The notes under the pieces: generated by a model
Seen by the model: the letters and a program-made list of their open reading frames with translations, nothing else
Database searches by the model: none
Told to the model about the DNA's origin: nothing
Assembly: GCA_905178155.1 (NCBI GenBank)
Contig: CAJINV010000002.1
Location: 7,222,743-7,286,742, forward strand
Source of the DNA: Amoebophrya sp. A120
Lineage: Eukaryota > Protista > Dinoflagellata
DNA: 64,000 bases
Direction of reading: 5' to 3'
Translations under genes and position numbers: made by a program
Shown: positions 5,207 through 38,046 of the stretch, piece after piece
Numbering within the stretch: position 1 is the first letter of the stretch
Layout: every line of letters starts with the position of its first letter

Positions 5207-7651
5207 ATGCCAGGCGGTTACGGCGAAAACTACATGGGTGATATCACGCGCAACAACACGGCCCCATCAACTCTGCCTTGCACTTATGCAGGAACATCAT
5301 TTTCACGCGCAGAGTCAAACTCAAAGTCAACAAACACAAACACAAAGACAAGCCGGAACTAGTTCCGCGGTCTCGCAGGGTCTAGGTCATGCTGGTGGAA
5401 TCCAGGAGTTCATCTTATTTGACTCATCATGCAACTGATTCCAGCACTACCATCAATATGACAAGCCTTTGCAAGAAATCAAAAAGGTAGTGTCGATAGT
5501 ACGGTGTCGTGTTTGCATGTGATATCGCGTTCTTTCGGTGGCGGGGAGTCTTCTTTTGAGGAGGAGACCCGAGGGCTGCAACACGACGAAGAACTGGCCG
5601 ACGAGGAGTTTTACGTTTCCAAGCCGAAATCCATGGTGCAGCACCCGCCGCAGCAGCAAACAAATTCCATGATGTACTCCGGAGAGGTATGGCATGAAGA
5701 ATGAAGAAAGGTGACTCGTCTCTTTACAACTGCATTTGCATGCTTGGAAGAAATGAATATGTCCGGGCTATTAAGTATGCTTTCGTATCCAGATTCACGA
5801 CTCCAAAGACTCCAGCTTGTAGTTAAGTCCATTAGTTGGTACCTCAACCCTGTGAACAAAAATAAGAGCACCTTTCTCGTCCCCTCGTTTCCATAGCCGA
5901 ACCCCCAGTACCCGAGCAGCTCCCCCAGTTCCGGGCCCGCCCTGCAGTACATTCCGCAGAGTGATTTTCTGTCTGACTTCGACAAGATCGACTTCATCCT
6001 GGACGCGAAGACCGGGTGCGCGGGCTACCGCTTCCAAATCCTGGGGAGACCGACGAAGACGCAGCGCGTGCACGTGATGACGATGACAATGAGCCGGAAC
6101 TGCTTCGACAACGGCGTGATGCGGCTGTACGAGGCGATGTACGACAAACCGCGAATTTCGCCCGGGAACTTTTCCGGTCTGCGCATGCGGTTCGGCGCCT
6201 ACGACGATTTGATCGAGAACCTGGATTACGGCGACCGCCCGCCGCTCGGCGAGTACGCGCTACCCTATCTCATGGCCGTCCCGCCGAAGACCTCCATCTA
6301 CACGGACTCCCGGGGCGTGTACCGGGAGGATGGAAATTGTTGTTGCGGGGCGTCGACCAACTGCAGCTGCTGCTACACGAACATCGACTACTCGGACAAG
6401 CAGAAGGACAGAATCCCGGCCGCGGCGTTGGAGCCCGTGCCCTGCTGCGAGGGCCCGGACTGCTCCGACCCGAAAAACAAAAATTGCTGCGCCTGTGGCT
6501 GCTTCGCGAAGAAGGACAAGCGCATTTGCTGCAACTACTGCGGCCCGAAGCCCGACGCGGTCGAGCTGTTTTCGCCGCAGGAGGAGCAGAGTGCGTGCAT
6601 GCTCAACTGTTGCGGCTGCAAGCTGAACGCCTGCTGCTGCCCCTACGAGGCCGGGTGCTGCTATGGATGTGTCAGAGTTGAAATCGACAGTGTTGAAATG
6701 ACTTGTAATGCATAAAATGCGATACAAAAAGTGACTCTATTGCAGAGGACGCAAGGGAGGCAGATTATAGTCCTGGTAAGGGTCAAGAGTTGGACTGCTG
6801 ACTAGCATGACAGAAGGCAGCTCTTTTGCCCTAAACCGCATGACAGACTCGCTTCCAGGACCGGGGAAATTTGTCATGCGCCGACTACAAACTGCAGGCC
6901 TAACTGGCATCCATTTTATGCATGACAAATTATTTCAACTTTGTCGATTTCAAACCTGACACTCCCATAGCTGCGCGCACGGCCCGGTGGAGCACGAACT
7001 GGTGTACTACGAGCGCGTGCTATGCAATGCAAAAGCATCGTACTAGTATAAATTGCATCACAAATTTTGGCAAGAAGAAAAGTGGAATTTGTAATGCTGT
7101 TTTACCTTAGAAAAGAGATTTGTCATGCATATTTGCAATTAGTACGACTACGATACTTTTGCACAGGATACGTGCCCAACCACGGCAATCTGGAGCAGCC
7201 CGGGCCCTTTCACCTCCAGGCCGTCAAGATCGGGAAATGCATCAACACCTCCTCCGCGGTGGAAAAGTGCTTCGGCCACTGCTGCAATTTCTTCTGCAAC
7301 CTGCCCCCGTGCTGCTGCTCGCAGACCGGCATGAGCGGCGAATACGAGTTGCGGGACATGAAGAACCGCCTGATTTTTACCATCGAGGCGGACGCCGGGC
7401 TCTGCCCGGGCAGCGACGCGGAGTTTCGCATCATGGAGCGGCGGGACGCCGGGAGGGCCCCCGTGCAGCGGGGGTCGATCAAGATGGAAATCCCGTTCTA
7501 CGCTTGTGGGTGCGGGGCGTGCGACTCCTGCTACGGGAAGATTCGTCTAGACTTCGGCACCATCGAGGACGTGTACCAGCGGTTCCACGTCTTGGGCTTC
7601 GCCATGCAGCTCTGCGAGAAGATGGTGGGCGCGCGACGCGGAGTGGCGTGA
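5207..7651 (+). CDS. Cys-rich phospholipid scramblase-like protein; exons ~5207-5241, 5530-5686, 5897-6661, 6975-7020, 7176-7651
   Basis: Exons join in frame (YSGE|PNPQYP, EAGCC|AHGPVEH, YERV|PNHGNL). The C-terminus FTIEAD...FRIM...GSIKME...RLDFGTIEDVYQRFHVLGFAMQL resembles the scramblase terminal strands and helix. First exon tentative. Confidence 0.6.
5242..5524. mobile_element. Degenerate TIR introner (283 bp), TSD not retained
   Basis: Left tatcacgcgcaacaacacg pairs imperfectly with right cgtgtttgcatgtgata. Flanks ggtga and tcgcg differ. Element+5 = 288 nt joins the flanking ORFs in frame. Confidence 0.55.
5687..5896 (+). other. GT-AG intron (210 nt) with decayed TAT...ATA inverted repeats
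   Basis: G|TATGG...CCATA|G; agaaaggtgactc near the 5' end pairs with gagcacctttct near the 3' end; in-frame exon join. Confidence 0.7.
6662..6969. mobile_element. TIR introner, family B (308 bp), inverted relative to 3041-3348
   Basis: Near-identical reverse complement of 3041-3348; TSD gctgc at 6657-6661 and 6970-6974. Confidence 0.95.
7021..7170. mobile_element. TIR introner, family D (150 bp)
   Basis: tatgcaatgcaaaagcatcgta / tacgatacttttgcacaggata; TSD cgtgc at 7016-7020 and 7171-7175. Confidence 0.9.
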
Positions 7652-9117: not shown

Positions 9118-10829
9118 TGTCTACCGCAGCGACGTTTTCGAATTTTCCGACCGAGCATGAGCGTTTTCTCTTCGACCTGAATGGATACCTGGTCCTGCGC
9201 AATGTCTTCACCGAGGCAGAAATCGCGGGCATGAACGCTGAGGTCGATGGGTGGAAAAAAGAAAACAAAGTGGTATACCGGGAAAATATGAAACTAAAAA
9301 ACGCACCAACGACGACGTCGACGGAAACCCAGAAAAATGGCGATCAAACGGTCCCAAGTCCCATGAGTGGCTTGACCACGTCGGCCGAGCACTCCAGGGG
9401 CGATCTGGGGGGCATATTGTCCGCAAAAGCCTTTCGGAATGTGTTGACGCATCCAAAACTGGTCCCCTACTTCACGGCGTTGCTCGGGAGGGGCTACCGC
9501 ATGGACCACCAACCCTTTGTGATTCTGCAGAACAAGGACTCCGAGGGATTCTCACTACACGGCGGACCGGTCGGGGGGAAAGACCATCGGTATTTTGTGT
9601 ATCAATTGAAGGAAGTGAGGACTTTCACATATGATCTTCTGTTGCCTCGTTGAGTGTAGTCCTCACAACCACAAGAGTTCTTACGCTCTGTGTGTAACTA
9701 TCGTGAACGTGATGTACTACATGATGTGCTAACATTGGTTCCTGTAGATGATTTTTGTCCTGTAGATGATTCATTAAATCCTCTTCCTATCAAACTCACA
9801 GCCCCATCCCGGAGCTTCAATACCATTGCCAGAATGGTTGGATCACGCAATCCCTGCTCGCCTGTTCTGTAGCGCTGCACGACGCGCCCGCCGGCGCCGG
9901 CGGCTACGTCGTGGTCCCGGGGTCGCACAAGCTGAATTTCTCCATGCCGCACGGGTTCGACGACGCGACGACCCTACCCGGCAAGGCTTTTTTCGAAGAA
10001 CACGTGCAGCAGCCGGTGTTGAAGAAAGGGGACGTAGTATGCAAGAAAAAAACTGTGTAAGTGTAACTTTCTTTGAGAAACAACATTACAAATTTGCCCT
10101 ACATGACAGAGAAAACCTCTCATGCGTGGCATGTAAGGGAAACGGAAAACACACATGAAAAGAGGACTTCGTGGCTGTCTGGCATGACAGGTGTAACTCT
10201 GTTGCATGTTCTGCAACACAAAGTTACACTTACGCAGTTTTTTTCTTGGATACGTAGTTCTCTTCTCCGAGGCGACCATCCACGGTGCCGTCACCTGGAA
10301 GGCGGACTTCGAGCGACGAGTCGCATTGTACTATGGCGTAGTTCTCAACTGTTACATTCTCAAGTGTTACATGGATTTGTCATGCAAGAATGGGACAAGT
10401 GAAAGGGGGGAGGTTGCATCTGTAGCATTACAAATTCCGAACAGATTTGGGTTCTGTTTAGCCATTCGCAAATTTGTCATGCGAAGCAGCTTGATCGTGT
10501 GGATCTTGGTGATCATTTTGCATGACAAATCATGTAACAGTTGAGAGTGTAACGTTTGAGAACGCCATATGTACCGGTTTGCGCCGGCGAATGTCGCATA
10601 TGGAAGGATGTATCTCGGGGAGGAAACGAAAGGCCCATTTGGGCTGGATTTGAAAGAATTGACCGAAGAGGAAAAAGCGGTCTTGCTACCGCCGTATGCG
10701 GTGAGAACCGAAAGAATGTGTGTAGAAGTGGATAAGGAAGAAGGTGGCCGTGTGAAGGTAGGCTTTGACAAAAGGACCGCAGAGAAAAAAGAGCACGACT
10801 TTAAGGTGTTTGGGACGAAATGGTTTTAA
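9118..10829 (+). CDS. Phytanoyl-CoA dioxygenase (PhyH) family Fe(II)/2-oxoglutarate oxygenase; exons ~9118-9589, 9802-10037, 10258-10331, 10575-10829 (start may be 8946)
   Basis: FDLNGYLVLRNV, LHGG, GGYVVVPGSHK, and the motifs KGDVVLFSEATIHGA and RRVALYRF, which appear only after the two introners are removed. Confidence 0.88.
9590..9801 (+). other. GT-AG intron (212 nt) with a weak terminal inverted repeat
   Basis: cg|gtattt...cacag|c gives in-frame DHRPIPELQY; ttgaaggaagtgagga pairs with tcctcttcctatcaa. Confidence 0.7.
10038..10252. mobile_element. TIR introner, family A (215 bp)
   Basis: tatgcaagaaaaaaactgtgtaagtgtaacttt / aaagttacacttacgcagtttttttcttggata; TSD cgtag at 10033-10037 and 10253-10257. 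Confidence 0.95.
10332..10569. mobile_element. TIR introner (238 bp), singleton family
   Basis: tatggcgtagttctcaactgttaca / tgtaacgtttgagaacgccata; TSD tgtac at 10327-10331 and 10570-10574. Confidence 0.92.
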
Positions 10830-11854: not shown

Positions 11855-12160
11855 TATGAGAATGCTGCACAAATGCTCCCCCTGCTTGCAGCTCTGATTT
11901 GCAGGACGTGCACCATCGGAATGAAATAAAATATTATAAAAGGCGAGCAGATAGTGGGTTGGGGTTCTCGTTCTGCATGACAAACCAACGTCGATGAGTT
12001 TTGTCGTTTGTTGGGCTTGTTCCAGATTTTGTCACGCAGGCGCTGGCAAAGGGAAACGAAAGGAAAGGGATTAGATGTCTAATATACTTGGTGATATGTT
12101 GATCTTGCGGGTCGTCACGCAGTCGAAGTCGTCGCGCGGGAGCAGTTGTGCACTCTCATA
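11855..12160. mobile_element. TIR introner (306 bp), singleton family
   Basis: tatgagaatgctgcacaaatgctccc / gggagcagttgtgcactctcata; TSD ggacc versus cgacc (4/5); removal gives EDLTKLDKVELIDKK. Confidence 0.82.
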
Positions 12161-13663: not shown

Positions 13664-15053
13664 ATTCTTGCGTGAGTACTGAGTAGCTCAAGTTTCGATT
13701 TTGAATAGCATTTCACCATGGTACGTAGTAGTAACTACTCTCCACAACTTCTTCCGGAGGCTCTGCTTAAGGACCTTTAACGTTTCGAATCGTTTATGAT
13801 TATGTTCGCTGGTCGACCAACACGTATCCCTTTTGCTTCCTTCATACGAGAGTGACCATTCTGATCATGTTTTTACTACAAGTGATGTGAACTATTCTTT
13901 TGGTTTCGCTACCCCTACCCTTCTTAATAATCATAAAAGCTATGCGAACGCGATCTGGTCCGTCGTGGACAAACGCGCAGGACTTTCTGACAAGGTGAAA
14001 GGCACCAGCCTCCACGAGGAAAGATGGGGCTGGAGCTTTTCGAATGTATCTTGTCTGTGTCTCTACTTTTTCGAATCCCGCGATTTACATTCTCCCTACC
14101 GTCGCCGCTTTAATACGTTTCCGCGACGTGCTATGCTTTTGCCTTGGACCATGTACTTAAACTAACACGAAGAAACTGACTTCTTATGAAAATTTTCCTC
14201 CAGGAGCCTGTGCCCGTTGAGAGCAGAACCTGGCTCCTCGGGCCGAGCATGAGAATCGGCCTCTGCCTTTCGTGCAAATTTCCTCGTCAATGTCCTCACA
14301 ACTTTATCGGTTATTTCCTTCTTCGGTCTCGTTCATGATGTCGGCGTCTTTTCACTGTCTCGGCTAGAAGTCAATTTCCTAGTCTGGCGGATGTTCTCAT
14401 GTGTGCCAACAGTTATTCGTTCAAAGGCGGCGCCAGTGGAGTTCCTTAGTTTCTTCGTGCGATGTTTCCGCTTCGTCCGCATCGTTAGCACTGCTATACT
14501 AGCGTTCTACGTCAATCGTTTGCTCCGCTTCGTCCCCGTTGAAAAAAATCTAGCGTTGTCTACTTGATGTGCTGGTAACACGACGTACTTGCGAACAATG
14601 CGTTCTTCCGTGTAGTGTTTGCGAAATCTAATCGTTTATGGCACACATCTTTTCTTCAACTGGCCGTGATCAAATCCAATTTCTCTCTCCAGTCCTTTTC
14701 TTTGTTGAAGTTGCAACTATAGAAGTAGTTCCCTCCCCCCTTTAACTCTTCTTCTATTTGCTTTTTCTACTACGAAAAGTACACAAGACCACAAATCAAC
14801 AAAAAAGTAACCCAAGGCCAGCACAAATATTGTATTCGTCAAGAGTTTTGTTTTTGAAGCCTAGAACCACGACCAGAATAAACGATCGACATAGAAGTGT
14901 AAAGGCGCGAAGGAGGCGACTCGCACGGCAAGAATCCATTCTTTGATACACAGGCAAACGACTCGACTGAATCGTTTGTGACCAGGACCTTGTGCTGGTG
15001 AAAAGTTGTAGTCCGGCGTTGCAACAAGGACACGCATAATTGTCAAACAAAAA

Positions 15054-16723
15054 ATGCATTTGAACACGGATTATTTCCTGCACGATCCGGTGCAGGAGCT
15101 GGAAAGCGCGGCGTCAAAGCCCAGCGAAATGAGAAAAACCACACCCGAGGGCTACATAGAAATCCTGCCCAATCGGCTGTACTGGACTGCGGTGAATTCC
15201 ACGCCGAGACCCACCTCCCAGTACCACTTTTTCTGCATCGACCAGGACTTGGTGTACGAGCCCTTCAACCAGGATTTTGGCCCGCTGAACCTCTCGTGCA
15301 CCTTCAAATTCGCCCGCTTGGTGAAGAAACTGCTGGACGACCCGAGTTTGTCGAAGAAGAAGCTCGTCCACTACTGCAGCCTCTCGGAGAAAAAGCGGCC
15401 TAACGCGGCGTACCTGATGTGTTGCTTCCAGGTGATGTACCTGAACAAGCCCGCGGAACTAGCCTACAGGCCGTTTGAGAACATCCGACCCCAGTTTCAG
15501 CCCTTCCGGGACGCGACGGCCGGCATGTGCACCTACGCGTGCACGGTGCTGGACTGCGTCAAGGGGTTGGAGTACGTATCCACAGTAATTTTCCTGTACA
15601 TGTACAAATGCGGTTTCTGCATGACAAAGCTTCCGTTTAATTCGATTCAGCATGAGAAGTGGCATGCTCCAAGTTGGTGAAATTTGTGATGCATTTTGTA
15701 CATGTACAGGAAATTTGTATTGCATAGTACGCCATGAAAATAAACTGGTTTAACCCGGAGACGTTCAACGTGCAGGCCTACGATTACTACGAAAAGGTCG
15801 ACAACGGCGACATCTCGTGGGTGATTCCGGAGAAATTTCTCGCGTTTTCCGGCCCCAGCGGGAACGGCATCGACACCTACGGCTACCCCGCCTTCACCCC
15901 CGAGGACTACGTGCCGATCTTCCGCAATGCGAACGTGTCCACCGTGGTGCGGCTGAACAAGGAACAGTACGATGCGGCGAGGTTCACGATGAACGGCATC
16001 AAGCACGTGGACATGTTTTTCCCGGACGGGAGCTGTCCCCCGAGAGACATTGTCAACCGATTTCTGCGCTTGGCGGAATCTGAACCTGCTGCGTTAGCGG
16101 TGCACTGCAAAGCGGGTCTGGGGCGGACGGGCACTTTGATCGGACTGTATGCGCAGAAGCACTACAAATTCCCGGGCCGGGCCTACATCGGGTGGAACCG
16201 GATCGCGCGACCGGGCGCGATCCTCGGACCACAGCAGCAGTATTTGTGCGATATGGAAAGGGAAATGATTGCTCTGGGCGAGCAGGAGCGCGCGACGAAG
16301 GGACTGAATGGTCGCAATTTGCCATCAGTGTCTGGTAGCGGAGCCTCAAACTCATTAAACGCAGGAGCAGCACTTCGCTCCCTCACCGCCGCTGAGAAGA
16401 AGGAAGACGTCGGCCAGGGCGAGCGTTTGGTCGCAGCTAAGGCGAAGCAAGGTGCAGGGGCTGGTGCTCTCACCGCGAAGTCCAGTATCAGTGCGAACCT
16501 GCAAGCGAAGTTGACTTCGAACGTCAGTGTGGGGGGAACAGGTTCGTACATCAACCGTTTAACCGGGAGCGAAATCTCCTTTTCGCGGTTCAGTCCGGGC
16601 CTCTCCTCGTCCAGTTCCCCGATGAAGCTCCTCGGACAGAAGCGCAGCGACAGTCGGCCAATCATGAAGGGAATGTTCGGGCCGCAGGGGCAACGCCCGG
16701 TGCGGTTGAGCTCGAATAACTGA
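15054..16723 (+). CDS. CDC14: CDC14 dual-specificity phosphatase, copy 1; exons 15054-15576, 15732-16723
   Basis: YEPFNQDFGPLNL, KRPNAAYL, PFRDA, FPDGSCPP, catalytic HCKAGLGRTG. Confidence 0.95.
15577..15726. mobile_element. TIR introner (150 bp), present only in CDC14 copy 1
   Basis: tatccacagtaattttcctgtacatgtacaaa / tttgtacatgtacaggaaatttgtattgcata; TSD gtacg; empty site gagtacgccatg in copy 2. Confidence 0.95.
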
Positions 16724-19072
16724 GGGGCTTCCGAGGAAAAGGAGACTGCACTGCCACGCTCATCGTTTTCGAGACGGTCGACACGGCAGCCGTCTTTACT
16801 GTTCCCGAGACATCAGAGACATACTCCCCTAAACCTTTTGCGAAGTAGAAACTTTTTCAGTGCCGCTGCTTAAGCGACACAAGCGACGAAATATGCTTCA
16901 ATTCAGGATTAATGGCTTCTGGCTTCATTATTTTTACACATTTTGCATTTTTCATTTTATTCCATTATCTTTTTTTTACTTCTTATTTCTTGCATATTTT
17001 TCTGTAGTTCAGTTTTTCACATTTTGCCACACCTTTTCATCGGCCTACTTCACATCGCATTCACAATCAAGTAAAAGCATCAGCACACTGTCGTCATCGT
17101 ACTAACAAGCGTCGCACATGCACAGTCACAGTACCCCTGTGCCGAACGTGCTCGCGTGACGTTCTCTTCGTTGTCCCCACGATTTCTGCGCTTTTTCGCA
17201 TGGCAAGGCTATTACCAATAGCACTGCGATGCAATCGATCTCACGGCAGTGCACGACCAGCCATCACTAGAATCAACCCAGCTGTAGTATTTCTAGTTAG
17301 TGTGTCCCGCGAAGAAAAGTGTGTCGTTTCCATTTTGTGCAGAAGTTGAGTTCAACTGAGATTTGGATTCGATTTCTTCTGAAGTACAAAGTAATAGGCC
17401 AGTAGTAGGTAGTCTTCCTGCCACTAGCATCTTCTGTTTGAGTTCTCCGCTGCTTTGTAGTACCCCTATTAATTTAGACAAGCGAACAGGACGGAGCACC
17501 CAAGCAGTTTTTAATTGAAATTTTTCAGATTAACCCAACCCCCCAAATTATTTCTGTACTACGGCGAGATCTGGCTCCCCTGATTTACCAAAGTGTCGTC
17601 TTCTTCCTCGATGCGATAAGTTACAAAAGTAACTGCGATCGCAAAAAGTAGCTTTGATAATTCAGGCTGCCACTCGTCTGAATATTGACCTGCGCAGCGC
17701 CTAAGGTTTTTTTCTGCTGTGGTAGCGCAAGACCGTGATTTTTTTGATCTTATTCATTCTGTAATGTCCTCGACCAACACGAAGACGAATCCCTTTTGCT
17801 TCCTTCATAGGAGAGTGACCATTCTGATCATGTTTTTACTACAAGTTAGTATGAGCTATTCTTTCAGTTTCGGTACCCGTACAGTTCTTGATAATCATAA
17901 AGGTCTGCGAACGCGATCTGATCGTAGACACGCGCGCGGGAATGTCTGATAAGTTGAAAGGCACCAGCCTCCATGAGGAAAGACGGGGCTGGAGCTTTTC
18001 GAATATATTATATCTGTGTCTCCTTTTCGTTTTCGAATCCCGCGATTCACATTTTCCCTACCCTCGCCGCTTTGATACGTTTCCGCGACGTGATATGCTT
18101 TTGCCCTGGACCAACATGTAAACACAAAGAAACTGACTTTTTATGAAAATTTTCTTCCAGGAGCCTGTCGTGCCCGTTGAGACCAGAACCTAGCTCCACC
18201 TCGGGCCGAGCATCAGAATCGCCCTCAGTTGTTCCTCTGCCTTTCGTGCAAACTTCGTCGTCAATGTCCTCACAACTTTATTGGTTAACTCCGTCTCCTC
18301 TCTCGTTCATGATTGCGGCGTCTCTTCACAGTCTCGGCTAGAAGTCAATTTCCAAGTCGGTCGGAATATCTCACGTGTGGGTGTGCCAACAGTCATTCGT
18401 TCTATCATCAAGAAAAGAAAGGTGGCGCCAGCGGAGTTCCTTAGTTTCTTCGTGCGATGTCTCTGCTTCGTCTTCATCGTTATCATTTTCATTGCTATAC
18501 TTGCGTTCTACGTCAATCGTTTGCTGCTTTTCGTCCTCGTTGGAAAAAATATGGCGTTGTCTACTTGATGTGCTGGCAACCCGTGCTTACGAATACCGAT
18601 GCGGTTTTTGTAGTGTTTGTGAAGGCTACTTCTTAGCGCAGACCTTTTCAGTAATTCGTCGTGATCATCAAATCCAATTACAATTTTTCTCGCCAGTCCT
18701 TTTCTTTGTTGAAGTTGCAAGTAGAAGTGCCCTCCCCCCTTTTCTTTAACTCTTCTATTTGACTTTTCTACTACGAAAAGTACACAAGCAACCACCACAA
18801 ATCAACAAAAAAAGTAACCCAAGGCCAGCACAATCACAAATATTGTACTCGTCGTTAAGAATTTTGAAGTCTAGAACCGCGACCAGAAGAAACGATCGAC
18901 GGACATAGAAGAAGTGTAAAGGCGCGAAGGAGGCGGCGCGCACGACACAAATCTATTCTCGATAAGAGGCAAACGATTCGACAATCGTTTGTGACCAGGA
19001 CCTTGTGCTGGTGATAAGTTGTAGTTCGGCGTTGCAAGAAGCACACGCAGAATTCGAATTGTCAAACAAAAA

Positions 19073-20854
19073 ATGCATTTGAACACGGACTATTTTCTGC
19101 ACGATCCGGTGCAGGAGCTGGAAAGCGCGGCGTCAAAGCCCAGCGAAATGAGAAAAACCACACCCGAGGGCTACATAGAAATCCTGCCCAATCGGCTGTA
19201 CTGGACCGCGGTGAATTCCACGCCGAGACCGACCTCGCAGTACCACTTTTTCTGCATCGACCAGGACTTGGTCTACGAGCCCTTCAACCAGGATTTTGGC
19301 CCGCTGAACCTCTCCTGCACCTATAAATTCGCCCGCTTGGTGAAAAAACTGCTGGACGACCCGAGTTTGTCGAAGAAGAAGCTCGTCCACTACTGCAGCC
19401 TCTCGGAAAAAAAGCGGCCGAACGCGGCGTACCTGATGTGCTGCTTTCAGGTGATGTACCTGAACAAACCCGCGGAACTAGCCTACAGGCCGTTTGAGAA
19501 CATCCGACCCCAGTTTCAGCCCTTCCGGGACGCGACGGCCGGCATGTGCAACTACGCGTGCACGGTGCTGGACTGCGTCAAGGGGTTGGAGTACGCCATG
19601 AAAATAAACTGGTTTAACCCGGAGACGTTCAACGTGCAGGCGTACGATTACTACGAAAAGGTGGACAACGGCGACATCTCCTGGGTTATGCATTGCAAAC
19701 ATGTCTGGGTCTGGAAGGTTGCAACTTGTAATGCTGTCTCTGCATTTTAGGAAAATCTGTATTGCATGATCAGCAAGAGGGGTCCAGTTTGTGCTTCATG
19801 GAGAGGGCATTTATCATGCGGAATATGCATTAGGAAGCCCTCCAAAAATCTGTGATGCTAGGTGATGCATTACAGGCATCGTGGGCCATGAAAAATCTGC
19901 ATGACAACTCTCGCAATCTTCCAGACCCAGACATTTTTGCATTTCACATGGGTGATCCCGGAGAAATTTCTCGCGTTTTCCGGGCCCAGCGGGAACGGTA
20001 TTGACACCTACGGCTACCCCGCCTTCACCCCCGAGGACTACGTGCCGATCTTCCGCAATGCGAACGTGTCCACCGTGGTGCGGCTGAACAAGGAGCAGTA
20101 CGATGCGGCGAGGTTCACGATGAACGGCATCAAGCACGTAGACATGTTTTTCCCGGACGGGAGCTGTCCGCCGAGGGACATTGTCAACCGGTTTCTGCGC
20201 TTGGCGGAATCCGAACCTGCTGCGTTAGCGGTGCACTGCAAAGCGGGTCTGGGGCGGACGGGCACTTTGATCGGGCTGTATGCGCAGAAGCACTACAAAT
20301 TTCCGGGCCGGGCCTACATCGGGTGGAACCGGATCGCGCGGCCGGGCGCGATCCTCGGACCACAGCAGCAGTATTTGTGCGATATGGAAAGGGAAATGAT
20401 TGCTCTGGGCGAGCAGGAGCGCGCGACGAAGGGACTGAATGGTCGCAATTTGCCATCAGTGTCTGGTAGCGGAGCCTCAAACTCATTAAACGCAGGAGCA
20501 GCACTTCGCTCCCTCACCGCCGCTGAGAAGAAGGAAGACGTCGGCCAGGGCGAGCGTTTGGTCGCAGCTAAGGCGAAGCAAGGTGCAGGGGCTGGTGCTC
20601 TCACCGCGAAGTCCAGTATCAGTGCGAACCTGCAAGCGAAGTTGACTTCGAACGTCAGTGTGGGGGGAACAGGTTCGTACATCAACCGTTTAACCGGGAG
20701 CGAAATCTCCTTTTCGCGGTTCAGTCCGGGCCTCTCCTCGTCCAGTTCCCCGATGAAGCTCCTCGGACAGAAGCGCAGCGACAGTCGGCCAATCATGAAG
20801 GGAATGTTCGGGCCGCAGGGGCAACGCCCAGTGCGGTTGAGCTCGAATAACTGA
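19073..20854 (+). CDS. CDC14: CDC14 phosphatase, copy 2; exons 19073-19686, 19954-20854
   Basis: Same motifs as copy 1; protein almost identical to copy 1. Confidence 0.95.
19687..19948. mobile_element. TIR introner, family C (262 bp), present only in CDC14 copy 2
   Basis: tgcaaacatgtctgggtctggaag / cttccagacccagacatttttgca; TSD tgggt at 19682-19686 and 19949-19953; right end reads ACA rather than ATA. Confidence 0.93.
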
Positions 20855-23059
20855 GTGGTTCCCGAGAAAAACGAGACTACACTGCCACGCTCGTCGTTTT
20901 CAAAACGGTAACGGTCGACACGGCAGCTGTCTTTACCGTTCCCGACACATCAGAGAATACTCCCCTAAACCTTTTGCGAAGTAGAAACTTTTTCAGTGCC
21001 GCTGCTCAAGCGACACAAGCGACGAACTATGCTTCAATTCAGGATTAATGGCTTCAGGCTTCAGGTTCACATCTTGCATTTAATTTTCAAAAAATCAACC
21101 AAAACTAAACATTATTTTTACACATTTTGCATTTTTCATTTTGTCACTTGTTCCATTATCTTCATTTTTTACTTCTTTGTTGCATATTTTTCTGTAGTTC
21201 AGTTTTTTACATTTTGCCACACCTTTTCATCGGTCTTCACATCGCATTCACAATCAAGTAAAAGCACCAGCACACTGTCGTCATCGTACTAACAAGCGTC
21301 GCACATGCACAGTCACAGTACCCCTGTGCCGAACGTGCTCGCGTGACGTTCTATTCGTTGTCCCCACGATTTCTGTGCCTTTTCGCATAGCAAGGCTATT
21401 ACCAATAGCCCTGCGATGCAATCGATCTCACGGCAGTGCACGACCAGCCATCACTAGGATGAACCCACCTGTAGTATTTCTAGTTAGTGTGTTCCGCGAA
21501 GAAAAGTGTGTCGTTTCCATTTTGTGCAGAAGTTGAGTTCAACTGAGATTTGGATTCGATTTCTTCTGAAGTACAAAGTAGTAGGCTAGTAGGTAGTCTT
21601 CCTGCCGCTGGCATCTTCTGTTTGAGTTCTCCGCTGCTTTATAGTACCCCTATTTAGACAAGCGAGCAGGACGGAGCACCCAAGCAGTTTTTAATTGTAA
21701 TTTTTAACCCACCCACTCAAATTTCTCTACTACGTCGAGATCTGGCTCCCCCTGATTTACCAAAGTGTCGTCTTCTTCCATGCGATTAGTTACAAAAGTA
21801 ACTGCGAGCGCAAAAATTAGCTTTGATAATTCAGGCTGCCACTCGTCTGAATATTGACTTGCGCAGCGCCTAAGGTTTTTCTGCTGTGGTAGCGCAAGAC
21901 CGTGATTTTTTTGATCTTATTCATTTTATTTTTCGACGCATAAGCCTAACTGCCTCTGCATTGCGGTGAAATCCGGAGTGTTTGCTATTCGAGCTTTGTG
22001 CCCAGTGTTCTTGCTGCCAAGAAATAAAGAAAATGCAAAGCTTCTAAACATCAGAAATCGTCCGCATCGACTTGCAATACGTATTTACAGCTCGACGCAG
22101 CACACAGCGCTCAGTAGATTTCGGTTTGAAGAGTCACCTTATAGGTATTGATATTGATTACGAAGAAAAAAAAAACACTACAGATGAACCTCACAGAATG
22201 CGCACGCGCAGTAGCAAGAAGCACGAAAGTAGTCGTAGACGTAGTGTTGTGCTCGGTATGATGATTGACTCGTGCGATAAAAAGACATGGAGCCGCGCTC
22301 CAAAGACTCTGTCTGCAAGCAAGCAAAAGTCGGTTGTATTTCGTACAAACCTGTTTATTTCGTGACGTTCATCAGAAGATTATCTGTGCCAACATCGGAA
22401 GAAGTAAATCTATTTTTGACGTCGACCTTCGTGCTGAAGCAATGCCTTCTTCGGACCACATGCAACTGGAGATCGTGCCGCGTTATTCGCTTTTGCGTTT
22501 CAAACCCTCCGCTTCCAGGTACACATCATTTCCCCCCATGGTGTAAAAACTCTACTTTTTTGAATCTCGCCTCGACTCAAACCAAAGCTAGTTCATCTTT
22601 TGTGGTACATACTTCGACAATTTGAAGAAGACTGACAATCTTGTCGCCACAAAATTGCCACGTCGCAACTTTTGCTCTTTTTACTAGACGAAGGATATTA
22701 CTTGGATTTGAAGTGGTTCAGGAGAAACTAGTTCGAGGAAGCGGATTCTTTTCAAAGTGAGGCTACGGGTTATTCAAGCAGCCACGCAACAAGCTTCTGC
22801 CGCGCGTGTGTTTGTTCTTGAAATAGTTACGTACAGTCTCATCTTTTGTCGCATATCATTTAAGTTGTTGCAGCCAGCAGTACCCTGCTCGCTGTCGCTC
22901 GCATTTGCATTGTGACAGACTGTGCATAGAACCAAACCTTTCACAGACTCTTTGAATTTTTGAAAAAGTACCATCAACCAGCAAAGCCAAGACTGCAACT
23001 GCTGCTGCTGCTGCTGCTGAACCTTTTCGGAGCCCACGAACCAAGCCGAAAACAAGAAG

Positions 23060-25045
23060 ATGCAGCACCTAAACAGCGACTACTTCGCGCAAGACGCGAA
23101 CCTGGTCGGCGAGCCGGGCAAGCTTTCCCCGGAGGGGTATCTGGAGATTTTGCCAAAACGGCTCTACTGGGTTGCCGTCTCCGCGATTCCGAAGGCAAAC
23201 TCACAATTCCACTACTTTTGCATCGACTCCGAGCTGGTGTACGAACCCTTTTACCAGGACTTTGGCCCGCTGAACCTCTCCTGCACGTACAAGTACGCCA
23301 GGCTAGTGAAGCAGCTGCTGGACGACCCGGCGCTCGCGAACAAGAAGATCGTCCATTACTGCAGCCAAGACCCGAAGAAAAGGCCGAACGCCGCGTACCT
23401 GATTTGCGCGTTTCAGGTGATGCTGTTGAAGCGACCGGCGGACATCGCCTACCGGCCGTTTCAGAACATAAAACCGCCGTTCATGCCGTTCCGCGACGCG
23501 ACCATGTCGGTGTGCACCTACCAGTGCACGGTACTGGACTGCATAAAAGGCCTCGAATACGCCATGCGCATCAAGTGGTTCGACCCGGCGACGTTTGACG
23601 TGAAGGCGTACGATTTTTACGAGAGAGTGGAGAATGGGGACATCAGCTGGGTGATCCCGGACAAGTTTCTGGCGTTTTCCGGCCCCTCCGCGACGCCCAT
23701 CGACATTCACGGGTACCCGACCTTCACCCCCGAGGACTACGTGCCGGTGTTCAAGGCGGCGAACGTCTCCCTAGTCGTGCGGTTAAACAAAAAGCAGTAC
23801 GACCGAAGGCGGTTCACGGACAACGGGTTGAAGCATGTGGAGCTGTTTTTCGTCGACGGCTCCTGCCCGCCCAAGGACATCATTGACAAATTTCTGCAGC
23901 TTTCCGAGGCGGAGCCGAACGCGATCGCGGTCCACTGCAAGGCGGGGCTGGGGAGAACGGGAACTTTAATCGGGCTGTATGCGCAGAAGCACTACAAGTT
24001 CCCGGGCCGGGCCTACATCGGGTGGAACCGGATTTGCCGGCCGGGCGCGATCCTCGGGCCGCAGCAGCAGTTTCTCGTGGACATGGAGCGGGAGATGATT
24101 CAATGGGGGGATATGGATTGTAAAAATGTCTGGGTCTGGAAGAATGCAACTTGTCATGCTAAATCTCAAGCATGCAAAAATCTGTGTTGCATGATTACCA
24201 AAGGTCGTCCGGTTTTGACCAAGTCGGGAGAGAGTTTGTCATGTAGGATAGGCATTAGAAAGGTCTCGCAGAATCTGTCATGCTATGTCCTACATACCAG
24301 ACCTCATCGGTCATGGAAAACCTGCATGACAAGTCTGGAAAACCATGGTATCTGGAAAACCTGCATGACAAGTCTGGCAATCTTCCAGACCCAGACACTT
24401 TTGCAATCCATAGGGGAAATGGAGCGACAACGGGTGGCGCCGCCCAGCCCACTGCAGTCGCTGGGTTTAGGGAGTCTTGGGTTCGGTGGCAATAGCAACA
24501 ACCCGGCCAACCGCATTTCCAACAGTCTGCGGGGATTGACGCAAGAGGAGCAACAAGAGGACGTCGGCCAGGGTATCCTGAGTAAAAATGTCCCCAAGCC
24601 AGAGTTGTGATGCAAATCTGCATGCCAAAAAAGTTTCTCATGCGGAGCCCCATGAGAGCGATTTTCTAGTCCTGTGAGGGAATTTGTGATGCTAGAATCA
24701 GCATGATATGCGAGATCTGTGATGCTTCGGAACTAGCTAAACAGGATTACACTACGAGGACATAACTTGGCATGCGAAACAACCAGAGGTGGCTGATTTG
24801 TCTAGCGGGTTTCCCATCTTGACTCTGGTGTGGGGGCATTTTTACTCAGGATACAGGGAGACCGTCTCGTGGCGGCGAAATTTGGCTTGTCGGGGGCGGG
24901 ACAGGCGAACTCCGGCTCGCTGCTCACCTCGAAACTGCAAATCATGGGTCAAAACCGAAACTCAAACGCCAACAACCCGGTCATGCGCGGGATGTTCGGC
25001 CCACAACCAGCCCCGGTCATGTTGCCGCCAAGTGGCAGCAATTGA
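23060..25045 (+). CDS. CDC14: CDC14 phosphatase, copy 3 (older paralogue); exons 23060-24111, 24418-24573, 24859-25045
   Basis: YEPFYQDFGPLNL, HCKAGLGRTG; the restored EDVGQGDRLVAAK matches EDVGQGERLVAAK of copies 1 and 2. Confidence 0.95.
24112..24412. mobile_element. TIR introner, family C (301 bp)
   Basis: tatggattgtaaaaatgtctgggtctggaaga / tcttccagacccagacacttttgcaatccata; TSD gggga. Confidence 0.93.
24574..24853. mobile_element. TIR introner (280 bp), singleton family
   Basis: tatcctgagtaaaaatgtcccca / tgggggcatttttactcaggata; TSD caggg at 24569-24573 and 24854-24858. Confidence 0.95.
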
Positions 25046-26619
25046 GGTGGTTGATGTAGGGACGTTTCGTAGTGATTGCGGCTCTAGTAACAAGAGCTGG
25101 ACCTCCTCCTAGCAGCCGACATATTTTTCATAAGCCAAAGTAGAACCCGTGCTGTTCGGACAGAACCGAAGTAGCTCCATTTCGCGACAGTAAATTCAAG
25201 AGTCTTGTTCATTAAACTGTTTTGCTCCTCACGATGTGTCATTTTTTACATAATTCTTTTGTATACGATTCATTTGCGATTACATTCAAAACATTCAGTA
25301 TTCACAGTTTAACTTTTCGTTTTATGACATTTTTCACATATTGCATCATTTCACATTAGAAATCCAAGAAGTGCAACTTGCGCTCGCTTTTAACGTATTT
25401 TCGATTTCGACATTTTACATTTTTTTCACACACAAAAATCTCTTGCTGAGTATCTACTACTCAACATCTCAAAAGCATTCTTGCATCGACAAGCCTGTGC
25501 AAGCAAAGTAGCCTGTTTTGAAATGCTGACCGACTACAGCGCTCGAGCTGGTACCCCCAGAGAGTGCTAGGCTCAGATTTTCTGTACCGTCTACGCATGG
25601 GATTTTCGTTGTGTTGGTCTGCTGTTGTACCCATTTTCCTTTCCAAAGTCTACTGTGAAAAATTCCAAAGGAACTTCATTCCACTCAAGAGGGTCGGACC
25701 CCGAAGCCGATTAGGTGATGTCGTCTGGCGGATATTTCTGCGGTAGTGCTGGTTTTTTTTTTCATTTTTTCAACATAAGTATGTTTTTTTACAACTCCAG
25801 CTCTCTTCTTCGGCTATCCCCAACTCAGGTGCGTTCCTTCGAGAACAACTTGGGTCACAATGCTAGCTTTCACAGTGGCACCCCCATGATCAGTTATGCT
25901 TACCTTTTATTTCGTGCTGCTCAATGGCAGCTGTTCTTGCTTTCTCCGCATAAGTCTTTCGTGGAGCAAGTAGTAATATCCTTTTTACTTCGAAGCACAG
26001 ACCTCCTTTATGTTGTCTACAGATCGTTGCATTGTGGTCCGATTTTTTTTTCGAAATAGTCTAGCGACTTCTTTTATGAAAATTTCGGAAACAATGCTGT
26101 GATCTGGCGATTAGACGGCGACCTCGAGTATTGAGACGAGCTGCACGCGTCCTAGTCGAAAAGGTGACGGAGCAAAAATATCTAAAACTCTACGTACAAC
26201 TACAATCCACGTAAAGTTTGCTATTGCAAACATGCGCGAGATGAACGATTCGGCAAAGAATGTGAGGACGAGAATTGTTGTAACGATAAGTAACGCAAAA
26301 CGCAATTTCCATACGCTTACGCGCTAGACCTAGAGCTGTAGTCAAGAGGGATTTGCAATGGCCCTCGCACGCGAGACGCCGAGAATAGAGTTAAGATATC
26401 GGGCGAAACATTTTATCACCGCACTTTCTCAGAATGTAGTCGTTCATTCAAAACAAAGCCTGCTTTCCCTCTCACTTGCTTCTTCGCGAGAGCGAAGGCC
26501 TTTTTGCTCTCGAAGGCATCAGTGTTCATCAGGTCGTCATCGCGATATTTCGACTTTGTCAGGGGTAGTCTGTCTTTGTTCGGCTTCGCTCGAGTTGGTG
26601 GCTGAATAGAAATGACGAT

Positions 26620-31900: not shown

Positions 31901-34900
31901 CAACAGCGCAAGTGCAGCCGTCGTCCTCATCTTCCACGACAACTCCGATCGATGCGCCGGTTTCCAGCGCCTCTTCCTCCTCGCCAACTTTTACTTTAGA
32001 GGACGACAATCGAGAACAGCAGCAAAGTAACATCACAGATAGTCGAGAACAACTGAACACCTCTTGGATCCTTGACCCAGCGACACACACGAATAAACAG
32101 CACCAGTTCAGGTCCTCCGGTTCTTCCAGCAAGCAGCACAGTCAACCATCTCCGGAAGACGACCACCCACCAACCGAGGATGAGAACGTGATCGCGATTG
32201 AGAGCACGCGCGGGCACACGACAAGGTACCGAATCGCGTCCAAAAACTCCATCCACATGATCGCGCCGAACCACGATGAGCAGATGAATACTTCCATGAA
32301 TAAGAGCAACGAACCGATTCTGCAGAACCCGTATCGGAAGTTATTGGATAGTGGGAGTAACACCAATCCGGAACAGCAAACTAACGACCTGTCTAGCACG
32401 ACAGCTACAACCTCTTCTGCGAGATCCTCGAAGCAGTCTGCAGCGAAGGAGGCCGCTGCACCAGGAAACTATAGCCAAATTTTGCGTTCCGCTGCAAGCA
32501 GCACGTCGACTTCGGCAGACGAGGGGGGAAACAAATCAACAGCCACTTTGAGCAAGCAGAGTGGCGGTGGTGGGGTCATGCAGCTTTTCGACGATCAACG
32601 GCAAACAGGACCACTTGCAAGAAGTCAGGAAGACAACCTCACTGATAACCTTACCAGCGAGGATAACATCCAAAGCAATTTCAGCCACCCGATACTAGTA
32701 GGCCACAATATCTCCCCCGAAGCGATCCCACTCTTCTCGCCGGCCGGGACAGGAGAAAGCCCCGGGGAAGACCAGTCCGACTCGAACACAAGCGAGTATG
32801 AACGGTCGTACTTCGAGCAGACGCCGGAGGTGGTGTCGGCCTTGAACTACAGCGTGAACAGGAGCATGATGCTGGAGTCTGCGGAGAAGCAGGTGCAAGC
32901 GCACAAAAAGCGAGTATTCGACGCGAACGACTTTTACTTGACCACCCCCGTGGGAGCAGCCGGGATGGACTACTTGGAAGAAAACGACATAGGTACTAGA
33001 GGGGTGCCTCCCCGTCCTTACGGTGGTAGCAGTCAGAGTTTGTTCGGCCGAGATTTAGAAGACCCGGCAAACAGCCGCGGTCGGGTGCTGGAGGTGCACA
33101 AGTTCAGGTTTGAGAAAACCACCGGAACCGGAAGCACACCGGAAGAGTGGAACAGTGCATCTTCCATGATGTTGCCTGGAGGACACGAAGAGAATGAAAA
33201 ATCAAACTCTGCCCAAAGTCGTTCCAGCAGCAGAAACAGCAGCAAGCAGGTCCGGTTTCAGATTGACAATGACGAAAAGATGCCCAGTGTGCCGCGCGTT
33301 GTAGACAGCAATGCTTCATCTTCTTTGGGAGCGGAAGTGGACCAACTTGGCATCTTTGAGGCTGAAATTAAGAAGCACTCCGATACGCAGACTAGTGACA
33401 CGCTGGCGATGATGAAGAGGGAATTTGGAGCAGCTTCCACCGCAGCTCAAGACCAGGTGAGAGACGAGCTGCACATCCAGCCGGTATTGGTCGGGTCGAC
33501 AATCGCAGTGATGCTGATCAGTGCCCCGGATGAGAAAGCGCTGTTTGGGAGTGCGTTTGTGGACACGAGAGGAAGTAGCGATTCTAGAACAAGGGTAGAT
33601 AACTTTTTGGAGCAGTTCGTCGTCGCGGCTCCGGCTGAAAACCCAATCCAGGTGAACAAGATGTCGCCCATGATTTCCAGTGCGACAAGACCACAAAGCG
33701 CTTCTGCCACTTTTCTCCCCGCACCCATTTCCACCGACAGTCTGTCTGCGCACGATAATCATTACTCCGCTCTTACCGGGGCGTTTGCATCTGCGGCGAG
33801 TGCGAGCAGCTCAATTTCGTCGACGCCTCAACGCAGCCATGGTAGCTTGGAAGCAAACTCATTTTACGAGCAAGGAGCTGTAACAAGCGAGGACGGTACC
33901 GTAACTGTCGATACTTTCTTCGGGGAGGGGTTGCACGCCCTGCTCGCGTCGGACCGGGCGAAGAAGAACCTATTAATCCTGAAGCACGCGATCTGTGGCT
34001 TTTGCAACCTGCACGTCAGTTTGATCTCCCATTTTCTCCCGGATTTCTTTTCGGCAAATAGTAGTACGGCGAGCTGGTGTTCTGGGTTTGCGGAAGATGG
34101 TCTTTCCGAGGAGACAACTTTTGACGAGAAGAGACATCTACCTTACATCCCATCCGACGAAGAAATTGAGGAAGATACTTCCGACGCAGGGAGAAGTAAA
34201 GATGGGCCAAGTAACCTGCAAAACCACGAATCCCTTCTCCTACAAAGAGAGATAGAGAAAGAATACGAAGAACAGCTACGGCAATCGCAGGAAGAATCGG
34301 AGCTGCTGTTGCAGAATCTGCTCAAAGATTTTGAAAAGTTCCTGAAGATCGTCTCAACCGTGACAGTCTTCCTGTGGTTGCACACAACCAACAGGCTGTT
34401 CGAATTCACGCTGCTTTTCGTCGCCAGCTTGCTGTTGGCCGCTGCCAGCGGGATCTTCTGTAGCGGGCTCTGCGATGTGCTGATTTTCGGACCAGATGGT
34501 GGCGCTCACTCGCTTCAGAGTGAATCAAAAAATGAAAAGGAGAACCACATCACGGAGCAGGCCATTTTGTCGAAGAAGCGGAAACTGATTCTGGTCAATT
34601 GGAATAGTTTGTTCGGCGTGGAAGGAACATCCTCATCGAGCTCTAGCACAGACGAAGAGCAAATGACATCACGCGGAAATAAATCAGCAGCACGAAGAAC
34701 AACGGCCCATCAATCTGCAACAACAAGCGTCACGAAACTGCAGGCAAAAACCGAAGACCCGGACTCGGTGAACATTGTGTCCGTGTCGAGAGTAGAATCC
34801 AGTATCAAGTGTAAAAATGTCTGGGTCTGGAAGAATGCAAGTTTGTCATGCTTGTCTGGCATGACTCGAGAATCTGTCATGCACATTACCAAAGAGCCAC

Positions 34901-36997
34901 ACTTTTCTGTCATGCAGAAACGTAGTTTGTCATGCAGAATAGGCAACACCTAGAAGCTCAGAAACTTGTCATGCTGAGCCAGCATTTGTAGCCTCATCAT
35001 GAGACGCCACCCAGCATCACAAGTTTCCAGACCCAGACATTTTTACTTTTGATATCCAGGAAGCGAAGACAACGACTTTTGGAAAAGAGGAAAATTCCTG
35101 GAGGTGCTGGAGCAAGTAGAACATCAGGAGCTGCAACGCCGACTACAGCAACTGTTCCGGAGCTGGAAAAGCAGGAGAAGCCCGGCGCGGCTATTAAGGT
35201 AGACGGGGGCACCAGTGCAACAAGTTCCAGCTACAGCAAGCCGGATAAACACAGTACGACTCTAGTACCAGCAACGACCAGCAACCAACAACTGTTCGAG
35301 CTCGGGCCGACGTTTACTGAGTACGAGAAGTGTGCGTTTATTTCCCTTTTCTGCGCCGGGGGCGCCGCGTTGCTACCGACTGTCGGCAGGTTGTTGGGGA
35401 TTTTGCCGTTGTTTCTTTACGAGGAAACGGACAAACAGGCGCAGGAACAGCTCCTCGGAAAGTGGAACGGGTGGACAAGATTTACGGCGGTAAGCCTCGA
35501 CACCGTGACGTTTCTGGTCTTACTCGACAGGTTCTACCAATTGTACATGATTGTGTACGGCTGCGGGTTTGTGTTGGCGAAACAGAATAGTACCAGCGGG
35601 AAAGAAACAGCAGAGGAGACCACATCGAAAAGCGGCAGTGGTGGTCCCCTCTCGAGAAGTACCAGCGCCGTGCCGAGAAGAAATACGTCGGCATCAGCGA
35701 GAAGCAAGAATCAGAAACAGAACGCAGAAAATCAGATTACCGACTTAGAGCAGGGCCTGGAGGTAGCGCCTACCGTAGAAGACGAGTACTTCTCAGTTGA
35801 TGCAGCAAACCAAATTACCGACGCAACTACAACGAAGATGGGCGCTAACGAAGTTCTTGTAGGAGGCCACGAATCTTCTTCGGTGACAAACCCGAAACGA
35901 GATCGATACACGACCAGCTTCGCCTTGCACACGCTTCGCTGGGAACTTTTGAAGTTGAAGCAGGTTTTCAAGCTTTTCGTCTTCACGCACTTTCTGACCC
36001 TGGCGCTCTTGCTTTGTCTCGTCTTTCACCAGATGTTTTTGTCTGGGTTTCTGCTGTCACCCGGGGGATTCGGTGGCGTTTTCGGGGGAAGTGGGCAAAC
36101 CAGCAATGCGTACGTTGACAACAGCCTGCAGGACAGCGACTTCAAGAAGAGCAGCTTCCCACACAACCCCTTCAACGCCAATAGCGGTCCGGATCTCAAG
36201 GACCGGCCTTTTGGGAACTCGGTACAAAATTTTCCCCTGTCTTCAACATCTTCTTCGACGGCAAGTGCGGCTTCCACTGCATCCTCCTCGTTTTTGGAAG
36301 GGTCGGAACAATCTGAGCAACAGCGGACTCCCCCCGATGACGAGGTGCAGTTCGCACGAGAGCTGCAGGAAGCGGACAATCGGAGGTATCTCGCGATGAG
36401 TAACGAGGAGCGTGCGAAGTTGGAAGTGGAGCAGCGCTGGGTGGCGCAGGAAGCGAGAAAGTGGTACAAGGAACAAGGGTGGTGGGCGTTCGGACAGTAC
36501 TCGCTACCACCAAATTCGGCACTGTTCAGCTTCGGGGAGGGAAGGGTATAGCCACTTCTTTTCTTGTTTTAGCATTTTTCGCGAGGAAAAATTAAAATAC
36601 ATGCCGTGGCTTCATAGTTCTATCTACTATAAGCCGTTTCTTTTATATCCACTTGTTGTATTTGAAGATAAAGATCATGCAAAACATCATACAGTGGAAA
36701 ATTGGCGCTGCCGTTTTCGCCTACGCCGTGTGTGCGTTTTCCGCACCGATGTACGTTGCTGCGAAGCATTTGGACACGCACGGGAGGATCTTGGAAAATT
36801 TGCTCGATGGGGGATTTTCGATTCTAATCGTGTGCTGTCTGATCACTATGTTGGGGCTGGCGGAAATCGGGCAGCAAGTTGCGGAAATGACACTCGAGGC
36901 GACGGCGTTGCAGGGAGAGGGAAATAACGCTGGTGTGGGCGTGGCAGCAGGGACTACAGCAGCTGCTGCGCCAGGAGGAGCGAGCGGGAATCCATAG
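28989..36997 (+). CDS. Very large multi-exon membrane protein of unknown function; exons ~28989-29342, 29554-30616, 30782-34802, 35060-36545, 36695-36997
   Basis: N-terminal hydrophobic segment, several TM-like stretches and long S/T/Q-rich linkers. In-frame GT-AG introns at 29343-29553, ~30617-30781 (donor uncertain) and 36546-36694, plus an introner at 34803. Confidence 0.65.
34803..35054. mobile_element. TIR introner, family C (252 bp)
   Basis: tatcaagtgtaaaaatgtctgggtctggaa / ttccagacccagacatttttacttttgata; TSD tccag; removal gives VESRKRRQR. Confidence 0.93.
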
Positions 36998-38046
36998 CAG
37001 TAGGTGGTGGATCGATTATTTATGAAAGCGAAAAAATCAAAATGAATATAATTGATGAAGATCAACATAACGAGCAGTTGTGAACTAGTCGTCCGAAACT
37101 GACAAACTGATGAAACTACGCGAACGTTTTTTGTGCCAATGCATTTCAACGATTTTACTTGTTTCAAGAACTGATTTTGACATGCAAAATGAATTTATTT
37201 TACACTACGAATTTCTATATTCTTCTGCTTCTGCAAGTGCAACACTCTTAGCATTTTAGCAAGATCGCTTGTACGATTGAGAAAAGATAGCGCACTAGAA
37301 TGAGTCACTATGACAAAGTCGATGAACTCACTACGGACAATTCAGGCCAGGCGGACAACAATGAACCTGATGTAGAGATGAAAGAACAATGTGATGATGA
37401 TCTCTCTGAGAATCAGGTAAAACAGCACCGATCCAGGAGTTACCGCCGCTGGTGCTGCAGGAAAAGCCAATTAGGAAACGGCAAGGATTCCGCACTCCCT
37501 GTCGAAGAGCAGGCAGAGTAGCGTCAAGCTGTAACAACTGTAAAACGACAAGATGATCATGATCTTCAGCAGGCGAAGAAATGATCACTTCACTTCTATG
37601 ACGATGAAGGCACACGATCTCGAACTCGATCTTTTGACGACACGATCTCGAGGAGCTCCTGTAGGAGAGCAGTACAGCTGTCAGGCTCAACCAAGGACAA
37701 GATTTGAAGAAATTCGTTGTTGACGATCCTTAATTTTTGAAAGCCCGCCGAGGATCATACTAAGTAAGTATTCGCTTGAATTCATAATTGGTTGTAAGTA
37801 GGAATGCACATACCTCAAGGAGGTTTTTATCTTTGCTCATTCTTGATGTATCGCTTTTGTCAAGTTCAACTCAATGCGCAGGACGAAGAACCAAGGCCAG
37901 GCGCATGCCAGACAAAGACCGTGCTTCCTGGATCAGAACATAGTAGGAGTAGGTAGCGACACTTGAATTTGCACAACGACAACGTTAGCCTTGGTCATTG
38001 ATTTTGTTACGACAGAACGATATTACATACAGGGATAGCGAATAAA

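Follow-up and report, generated by a model that had tools for sequence, protein, structure and literature searches.

The genome of the dinoflagellate Amoebophrya sp. A120, a marine parasite of algae (assembly GCA_905178155.1), contains, on contig CAJINV010000002.1, a stretch of 64,000 nucleotides (nt), hereafter the window, in which three CDC14-type genes lie on the + strand within positions 15054-25045 and are interrupted by four short repetitive elements, E1 to E4. These elements are very probably A120 introners that were gained independently by transposition into CDC14 exons and are excised together with one copy of the direct repeat flanking each of them. Each insertion site is empty, with a single copy of the repeat, in both other paralogues, and E2, E3, and E4 are removed exactly as the element plus one repeat, with non-canonical borders, from what are likely transcripts.

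Four elements in three CDC14 paralogues

Copy 1 (15054..16723) and copy 2 (19073..20854) each encode 504 amino acids after removal of E1 and E2, respectively, with one repeat, and the two conceptual proteins match the annotated A120 proteins P0122 (CAD7934657.1) and P0013 (CAD7934658.1) letter for letter. Copy 3 (23060..25045) encodes 464 amino acids once E3 and E4 are removed with one repeat each, and is 80% identical to the A25 protein P0002 over the first exon. To judge from their domains, the three genes are CDC14 dual-specificity phosphatases, enzymes of the cell cycle in which a DSPn domain precedes a DSP catalytic domain: PF14671 (DSPn) is matched in the CDC14 copies with an E value of about 1e-53 and PF00782 (DSP catalytic domain) with one of about 1e-5, below its curated cut-off; all three copies contain HCKAGLGRT, which we take to be a phosphatase motif of the HCxAGxGRT type; and their homologues carry the name 'cell division cycle 14'. 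Pfam matches to 'polymorphic toxin DSP-PTPase' were set aside as generic phosphatase-domain matches that imply no separate identity.

E1 (15577-15726, 150 nt) lies in copy 1 between repeats of GTACG at 15572-15576 and 15727-15731; E2 (19687-19948, 262 nt) lies in copy 2 between repeats of TGGGT at 19682-19686 and 19949-19953; and copy 3 holds both E3 (24112-24412, 301 nt; GGGGA at 24107-24111 and 24413-24417) and E4 (24574-24853, 280 nt; CAGGG at 24569-24573 and 24854-24858). The initial annotation had placed elements at LEY^AMK in copy 1, SWV^IP in copy 2, and WG^EM and GQG^DR in copy 3; the coordinates, the direct repeats, perfect (5/5) around all four, and the inverted ends confirm all four positions, the site in copy 2 reading SW^VIP. 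The inverted ends read TAT...ATA in E1, E3, and E4, and E2 has ACA at its right end, where it finishes in ...CACA against ...CATA in other copies of its family, a private terminal change. The outer ends of E1, which has a weaker A-run on the left, are complementary at 14/20 positions and those of E3 and E4 at 18-19/20, and all four elements fold as long hairpins (z of -4.6, -6.6, -7.6, and -8.1 for E1 to E4).

Where contigs derived from other loci align to the window, the match breaks off at an element end: 19687 (19686 in some runs), 24112, 24412, or 15726. The pentamers therefore lie outside the elements and are target duplications. Summed contig depth on the elements, which is not a copy number, exceeds the single-copy depth of ~28 by a factor of hundreds to thousands, and E3 and E4 match high-copy families at at least 92% over the stretches aligned. 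E2 and E3 share an end family with a further element at 34803-35054; with 72% identity over 234 nt and 65% globally, they are too diverged for either to have been copied locally from the other. Viral contigs contained no match to a 20-nt motif from the ends of the E2/E3 family.

Pre-insertion sites

Once the elements and one repeat each have been removed, the proteins of the three copies align gap-free at all four insertion sites, and the pentamer at the eight empty sites, all on the + strand, is exact in five and agrees at four of five letters in three. The E1 site is empty at 19591-19595 in copy 2 (GTACG, exact) and at 23557-23561 in copy 3 (4/5); the E2 site at 15818-15822 in copy 1 and 23648-23652 in copy 3 (TGGGT, both exact); the E3 site at 16277-16281 in copy 1 (GGCGA, 4/5) and 20408-20412 in copy 2 (4/5); and the E4 site at 16415-16419 in copy 1 and 20546-20550 in copy 2 (CAGGG, both exact). 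The earlier claim that every site is uninterrupted in the other copies thus holds, all eight being found in register, as does that of a single repeat copy at the E1 and E2 empty sites of copies 1 and 2, which are exact; the equally exact E4 sites had gone unnoted.

It had also been claimed that the locus fixes a 5-bp target-site duplication (TSD) by itself. The length is supported, with the qualification that at E1 the comparison of filled and empty sites alone permits a repeat of 6 nt, as E1 ends in the same base that precedes the repeat; the inverted ends of E1, together with other family copies that end at 15726, set its repeat at 5 nt. Terminal inverted repeats (TIRs), a TSD of constant length and variable sequence, a non-coding interior, and an empty homologous site together mark E1-E4 as likely non-autonomous TIR DNA transposons of the miniature inverted-repeat transposable element (MITE) type.

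Exact removal from likely transcripts

The RNA nature of runs X3-X6 is a tool's guess, supported by zero depth in intergenic bins and by the skips themselves, and assembled contigs drop rare forms. One contig of the likely-RNA run X3 covers 24004-24106, 24413-24568, and 24854-26000 with no other letters, skipping 306 nt at E3 and 285 nt at E4 with five letters fitting either side of each; these skips are absent from the likely-DNA run X1. An exact 267-nt skip at E2 occurs in X4 and X5 and is placed on copy 2, no other letters being listed at the copy-2 diagnostic sites 19681 and 19957 in the contigs concerned. E2 is removed exactly despite its private terminal change. In-frame GT..AG alternatives exist within 15 nt of E2, E3, and E4 and are not among the listed joints, and at the offsets of exact removal GT..AG is found in 0/13 elements of the window and GC..AG in 1/13.

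Three further observations concern these transcripts. E3 with its repeat makes 306 nt that are stop-free in frame (23021-24610), so that retention would add 102 residues and keep the frame. In the likely-RNA runs, copy 1 contigs are much shallower than those of copy 2, depth being a poor measure. The environmental RNA run X8, an aquatic metatranscriptome, holds short near-identical pieces, some of them identical to the window (15953-16217), none of which crosses the four sites, and it also holds other copies of the E2 family; through such data, wild populations could be tested for the presence or absence of the elements. From the raw-read run X11, two reads aligned to the window.

Duplication history and polarity of the insertions

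Copies 1 and 2 form a tandem duplication (13813..21937, + strand) with a unit of ~4 kb that includes flanks, so that neither copy is a retrocopy. Its junction lies near 17771-17775, and the pentamer TCGAC stands there and at both outer ends (13813, 21933). Contigs bridge the junction (17577-17840) with no other letters, the depths of the unique flanks are 27.7 for copy 1, 21.7 for copy 2, and 28.8 for copy 3, and the 5' flanks have diverged, all of which supports a real tandem duplication. Synonymous divergence (dS) between copies 1 and 2 is 0.095 overall, 0.15 over codons 1-334 (bootstrap 0.10-0.21), and 0 over codons 335-496, and rises to ~0.12 overall when contig variants are included; copy 3 differs from copies 1 and 2 by a dS of 1.2-1.6. 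A quick protein tree places copies 1 and 2, copy 3, A25 P0002, and P0123 in one unresolved clade and gives no order for the duplications. The protein branch of copies 1 and 2 measures 1.03 against 0.19 for copy 3, and dN/dS between copies 1 and 2 is ~0.02, a combination that suggests fast change earlier and strong constraint afterwards.

Mis-assembled haplotypes had been named as a finding that would overturn the reading of intron gain, and it is extremely unlikely that copies 1 and 2 are haplotypes of this kind or an assembly duplication. What speaks for it is a 488-nt block (16211-16698 and 20342-20829, + strand) that is identical between the copies in the window, where ~16 differences would be expected, together with P0121, a 1,733-nt A120 scaffold with a redundant copy-2-like fragment and an E2 tail. 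Both unique 5' flanks are nevertheless near single-copy depth, the 3'-to-5' junction is bridged, and contigs imply at least eight real differences inside the 'identical' block, with eight other letters there, seven synonymous and one changing a residue. The block was thus probably homogenised by assembly; gene conversion is judged less likely, since the contigs show these eight letters, and a further unseen copy behind them is possible. P0121 is a partial copy-2-like gene, either a redundant fragment or a fourth copy; its annotated protein still has six or seven residues derived from the tail of E2, with the private end variant of that element among them.

With the duplication established, the empty sites argue that E1 and E2 were likely inserted after it, which would make dS of about 0.10-0.15 an upper bound on their age. 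Such gain is the simplest account because the sister copy, copy 3, and all four distant intron-bearing loci are empty: a metagenome scan found six loci, of which the distant L003-L006 read straight through the sites of E1 and E2 (4/4), and L001 and L002, which are uninterrupted and may be transcripts, were left out of the polarity. The three paralogues alone polarise only E1 and E2 and leave gain or loss of E3 and E4 undecided; the latter are called gains, likely made in the copy 3 lineage long after its split from copies 1 and 2, because perfect repeats, near-perfect ends, and high-copy close relatives mark them as young. The initial annotation had described a recent tandem duplication of copies 1 and 2 later than which E1 and E2 probably arose, and the bridged junction, the single-copy flanks, the computed dS, and the empty sister copy, copy 3, and distant loci bear it out. 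Its four insertions by transposition are supported as well, E1 and E2 being polarised by the paralogues and E3 and E4 by the youth of the elements. The description of gain as ongoing goes beyond what these four elements show, as the locus yields only an upper age bound and E2 already bears a private end mutation.

Another way to arrive at the same distribution is differential loss, in which the parent of copies 1 and 2 had E1 and E2, perhaps also E3 and E4, and each copy lost one through recombination with spliced complementary DNA (cDNA) or through precise excision. cDNA-mediated intron loss and retro-recycling occur in dinoflagellates, and a site from which an intron has been lost precisely looks like an empty one, with a single repeat. 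We nonetheless consider this history unlikely: for E1 and E2 it requires two gains and two reciprocal losses against two gains, it has to accommodate copy 3 and four of four distant loci that are also empty, and the 5/5 repeats, 18-19/20 ends, and family matches of at least 92% of E3 and E4 would be unlikely for introns as old as dS >1.2. The introner families of A120 are, moreover, described as strain-specific (PMC7789003).

Unequal crossover between divergent alleles already polymorphic for E1 and E2 would place the insertions before the tandem event and after the divergence of the alleles, and a dS of 0.10-0.15 could fit deep allelic diversity in a marine protist with a large population. 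This is very unlikely, since the 5' flanks (13813-15053 and 17771-19072) are ~15% diverged with many indels, and since TCGAC at the junction and at both outer ends fits microhomology-mediated duplication of one template; the 3' flanks are ~5% diverged. Even so, the gain of E1 and E2 would stay unchanged.

Copies 1 and 2 carry two private elements and none shared. Per kb of coding sequence the two amount to 0.66 elements (95% range 0.08-2.4), close to the genome-wide density of 0.64 per kb computed from published counts; the likelihood ratio is ~40:1 against 90% of elements pre-dating the split and only 2.5:1 against 50%, and the density comparison is a lead only, the locus having been selected for its pattern of private insertions.

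Related elements across the window

A repeat-first scan (5-nt direct repeat, end complementarity of at least 15/20) found 13 segments in the window against 0, 0, and 1 in three shuffles. One of the 13 corresponds to the interior of E1; the outer ends of that element, at 14/20, fall under the threshold. A repeat-blind scan, whose TAT..ATA filter leaves out E1 (14/20 ends) and E2 (ACA end), returned 12 segments, 11 of which are flanked by a repeat of exactly 5 nt (chance ~0.001 each); the twelfth pairs inner parts of two neighbouring elements. Nine further TAT..ATA elements with perfect 5-nt repeats were thereby located, at 2771-2980, 3041-3348, 6662-6969, 7021-7170, 10038-10252, 34803-35054, 40803-41109, 44530-44638, and 48780-48989, all inside + strand reading frames. 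Among the adjoining genes are an arginine-methyltransferase-like open reading frame (ORF) at 38002-39717 and a DEAD/DEAH helicase at 42741-48779, the domains of which are separated by the element at 44530.

The 13 curated elements carry 13 different pentamers, and several families with unrelated interiors have in common the end rule and an internal motif, TGT[CGA]ATGC, of which the elements hold 45 instances in 3,062 nt and the rest of the window 10 in 60,938 nt. Removal of the element plus 5 nt gives the longest ORF in 10 of the 13, the exceptions being 6662, 7021, and E4; for E4, homology and RNA still favour this removal. The elements at 3041-3348 and 6662-6969 are two 308-nt copies in opposite orientation, with 11 mismatches and unrelated flanks. 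This pair reflects a transposition younger than the CDC14 duplication and offers the best local sign of recent activity, and both orientations appear to be tolerated in + strand genes. Two degenerate candidates, at 10332-10569 (ends 10/20, repeat 5/5) and 11855-12160 (ends 13/20, repeat 4/5), are possibly older insertions.

Comparison with known introners

The introners of A120 are described by Farhat et al. 2021 (PMC7789003) as inverted repeats starting with TAT, with direct repeats of 3-5 nt and non-canonical borders, and as amounting to 29,850 copies in strain-specific families, with 97 identical pairs. Their ends of TAT, ~7 nt, and an A-run, their hairpin, short direct repeats, non GT-AG borders, and length of 150-300 nt are all alike in the elements studied here: E1-E4 have TAT/A-run ends, a repeat within the 3-5-nt range, and relatives repeated in the genome, and E2, E3, and E4 have the non-canonical removal as well. 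In the passages seen, that account gives repeats of 3-5 nt and unresolved borders and contains no empty site, whereas 11 of the 12 scan matches in the window have a repeat of exactly 5 nt, the paralogous sites are empty, and an age bound is available; the legend of its Fig. S19 does give 5-bp direct repeats, and its figures may already display 5 nt as the dominant length.

In Gozashti et al. 2025 (PMC12130899), Dataset S2 lists the A120 family 38 as Ginger, a TIR DNA transposon with '5-bp TSD, TA/TA Termini', and a putative transposase region is reported to be homologous to Copia/Gypsy elements; automated TSD calls for the other A120 families are 2-6 nt (one 11) or NA, over 56 of 58 rows. The TA/TA termini and the 5-bp TSD of family 38 recur in E1-E4, whereas family 38, at ~808 nt and with ORFs, differs from these non-coding elements of 150-301 nt.

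The introners of Micromonas and Aureococcus are likewise MITE-like non-autonomous TIR transposons that duplicate their target and turn into introns, and empty orthologous sites served as evidence for them (Fig. 2G legend), as summarised in PMC11282704 and PMC9860276; unlike the A120 elements, which are removed exactly without GT-AG, they carry or co-opt canonical splice sites. The nonconventional introns of euglenids and the non-canonical introns of Fritillaria borealis, as reviewed in PMC11282704, are also transposon-derived, with inverted ends, junction repeats, and non-canonical borders, and differ in belonging to other lineages and having other end motifs. No publication on this locus, on Amoebophrya CDC14, or on paralogous empty sites in Amoebophrya was found in the open literature.

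Proposed mechanism

In the mechanism proposed here, an integrase-type (Ginger/Copia-like) DDE transposase acting in trans would recognise the TA ends and TGT[CGA]ATGC and make a 5-nt staggered cut, leaving each element flanked by its own 5-nt duplication, a step visible in the pentamer that is single at each empty site. Pairing between the inverted ends of 30-40 nt is predicted to give the pre-mRNA a hairpin in which the two repeats come to lie next to each other, whereupon the element and one repeat would be skipped exactly without GT-AG ends, as seen for E2-E4, and the original codons restored, most likely by a modified spliceosome guided by the hairpin. E1 and E2 would have entered after the duplication of copies 1 and 2, and the two elements of copy 3 well after its lineage had separated from that of copies 1 and 2. 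An integrase-type enzyme is suggested because of the annotation of family 38 and because 5-bp duplications are typical of Copia-type integrases.

Several points weigh against this account as a whole. A scan of 20 ORF pieces within the window turned up no transposase, and Farhat et al. 2021 (PMC7789003) name no candidate transposase for A120 and speak against general mobilisation by transposases. The putative link of E1-E4 to family 38 is based on features of the ends and repeats that they have in common. Differential loss keeps a small probability, the outgroups compared being paralogues and distant loci. As for E1, no joint is present among the listed contig joints, none of the listed DNA contigs bridges an E1 junction, and a canonical GT..AG cut adding one codon is possible there; contigs cannot separate spliced E1 from copy 2, because the junction equals copy 2 DNA for ~90 nt, and the exact removal of E1 is thus inferred.

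Implications for introner evolution

For this organism, the class, the 5-bp repeats, and the TA ends have been published before, and what is new is the direct empty sites, the upper age bound, and the uniform 5-nt repeat across several families. The locus bears on the mobility, age, and splicing of the roughly 30,000 non-canonical introners of A120, against a background in which Farhat et al. doubted mobilisation by transposases and published TSD calls range from 2 to 6 nt (PMC7789003, PMC12130899). It supplies the sequences as they stood before insertion, the precise limits of the elements, a constant 5-bp duplication, and a maximum age, and exact removal holds even near GT-AG options and with a mutated terminal base. 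The locus is thus a clean worked example, a dated instance of a described kind of intron, and a pointer to a method rather than a new system, in that a genome-wide test of paralogues can date the introner invasion from one genome.

A broader possibility, advanced tentatively and with somewhat less than even confidence, is that a single integrase-type transposase, with a constant 5-bp stagger and TA ends, mobilised most A120 introner families even though their interiors are unrelated. The burst would for the most part be younger than dS ~0.15, and the geometry of the hairpin, not the sequence of splice sites, would direct splicing. If so, paralogue pairs would serve as an internal clock, and tens of thousands of introns, together with the tolerance for them, would have arisen in a very short evolutionary interval.

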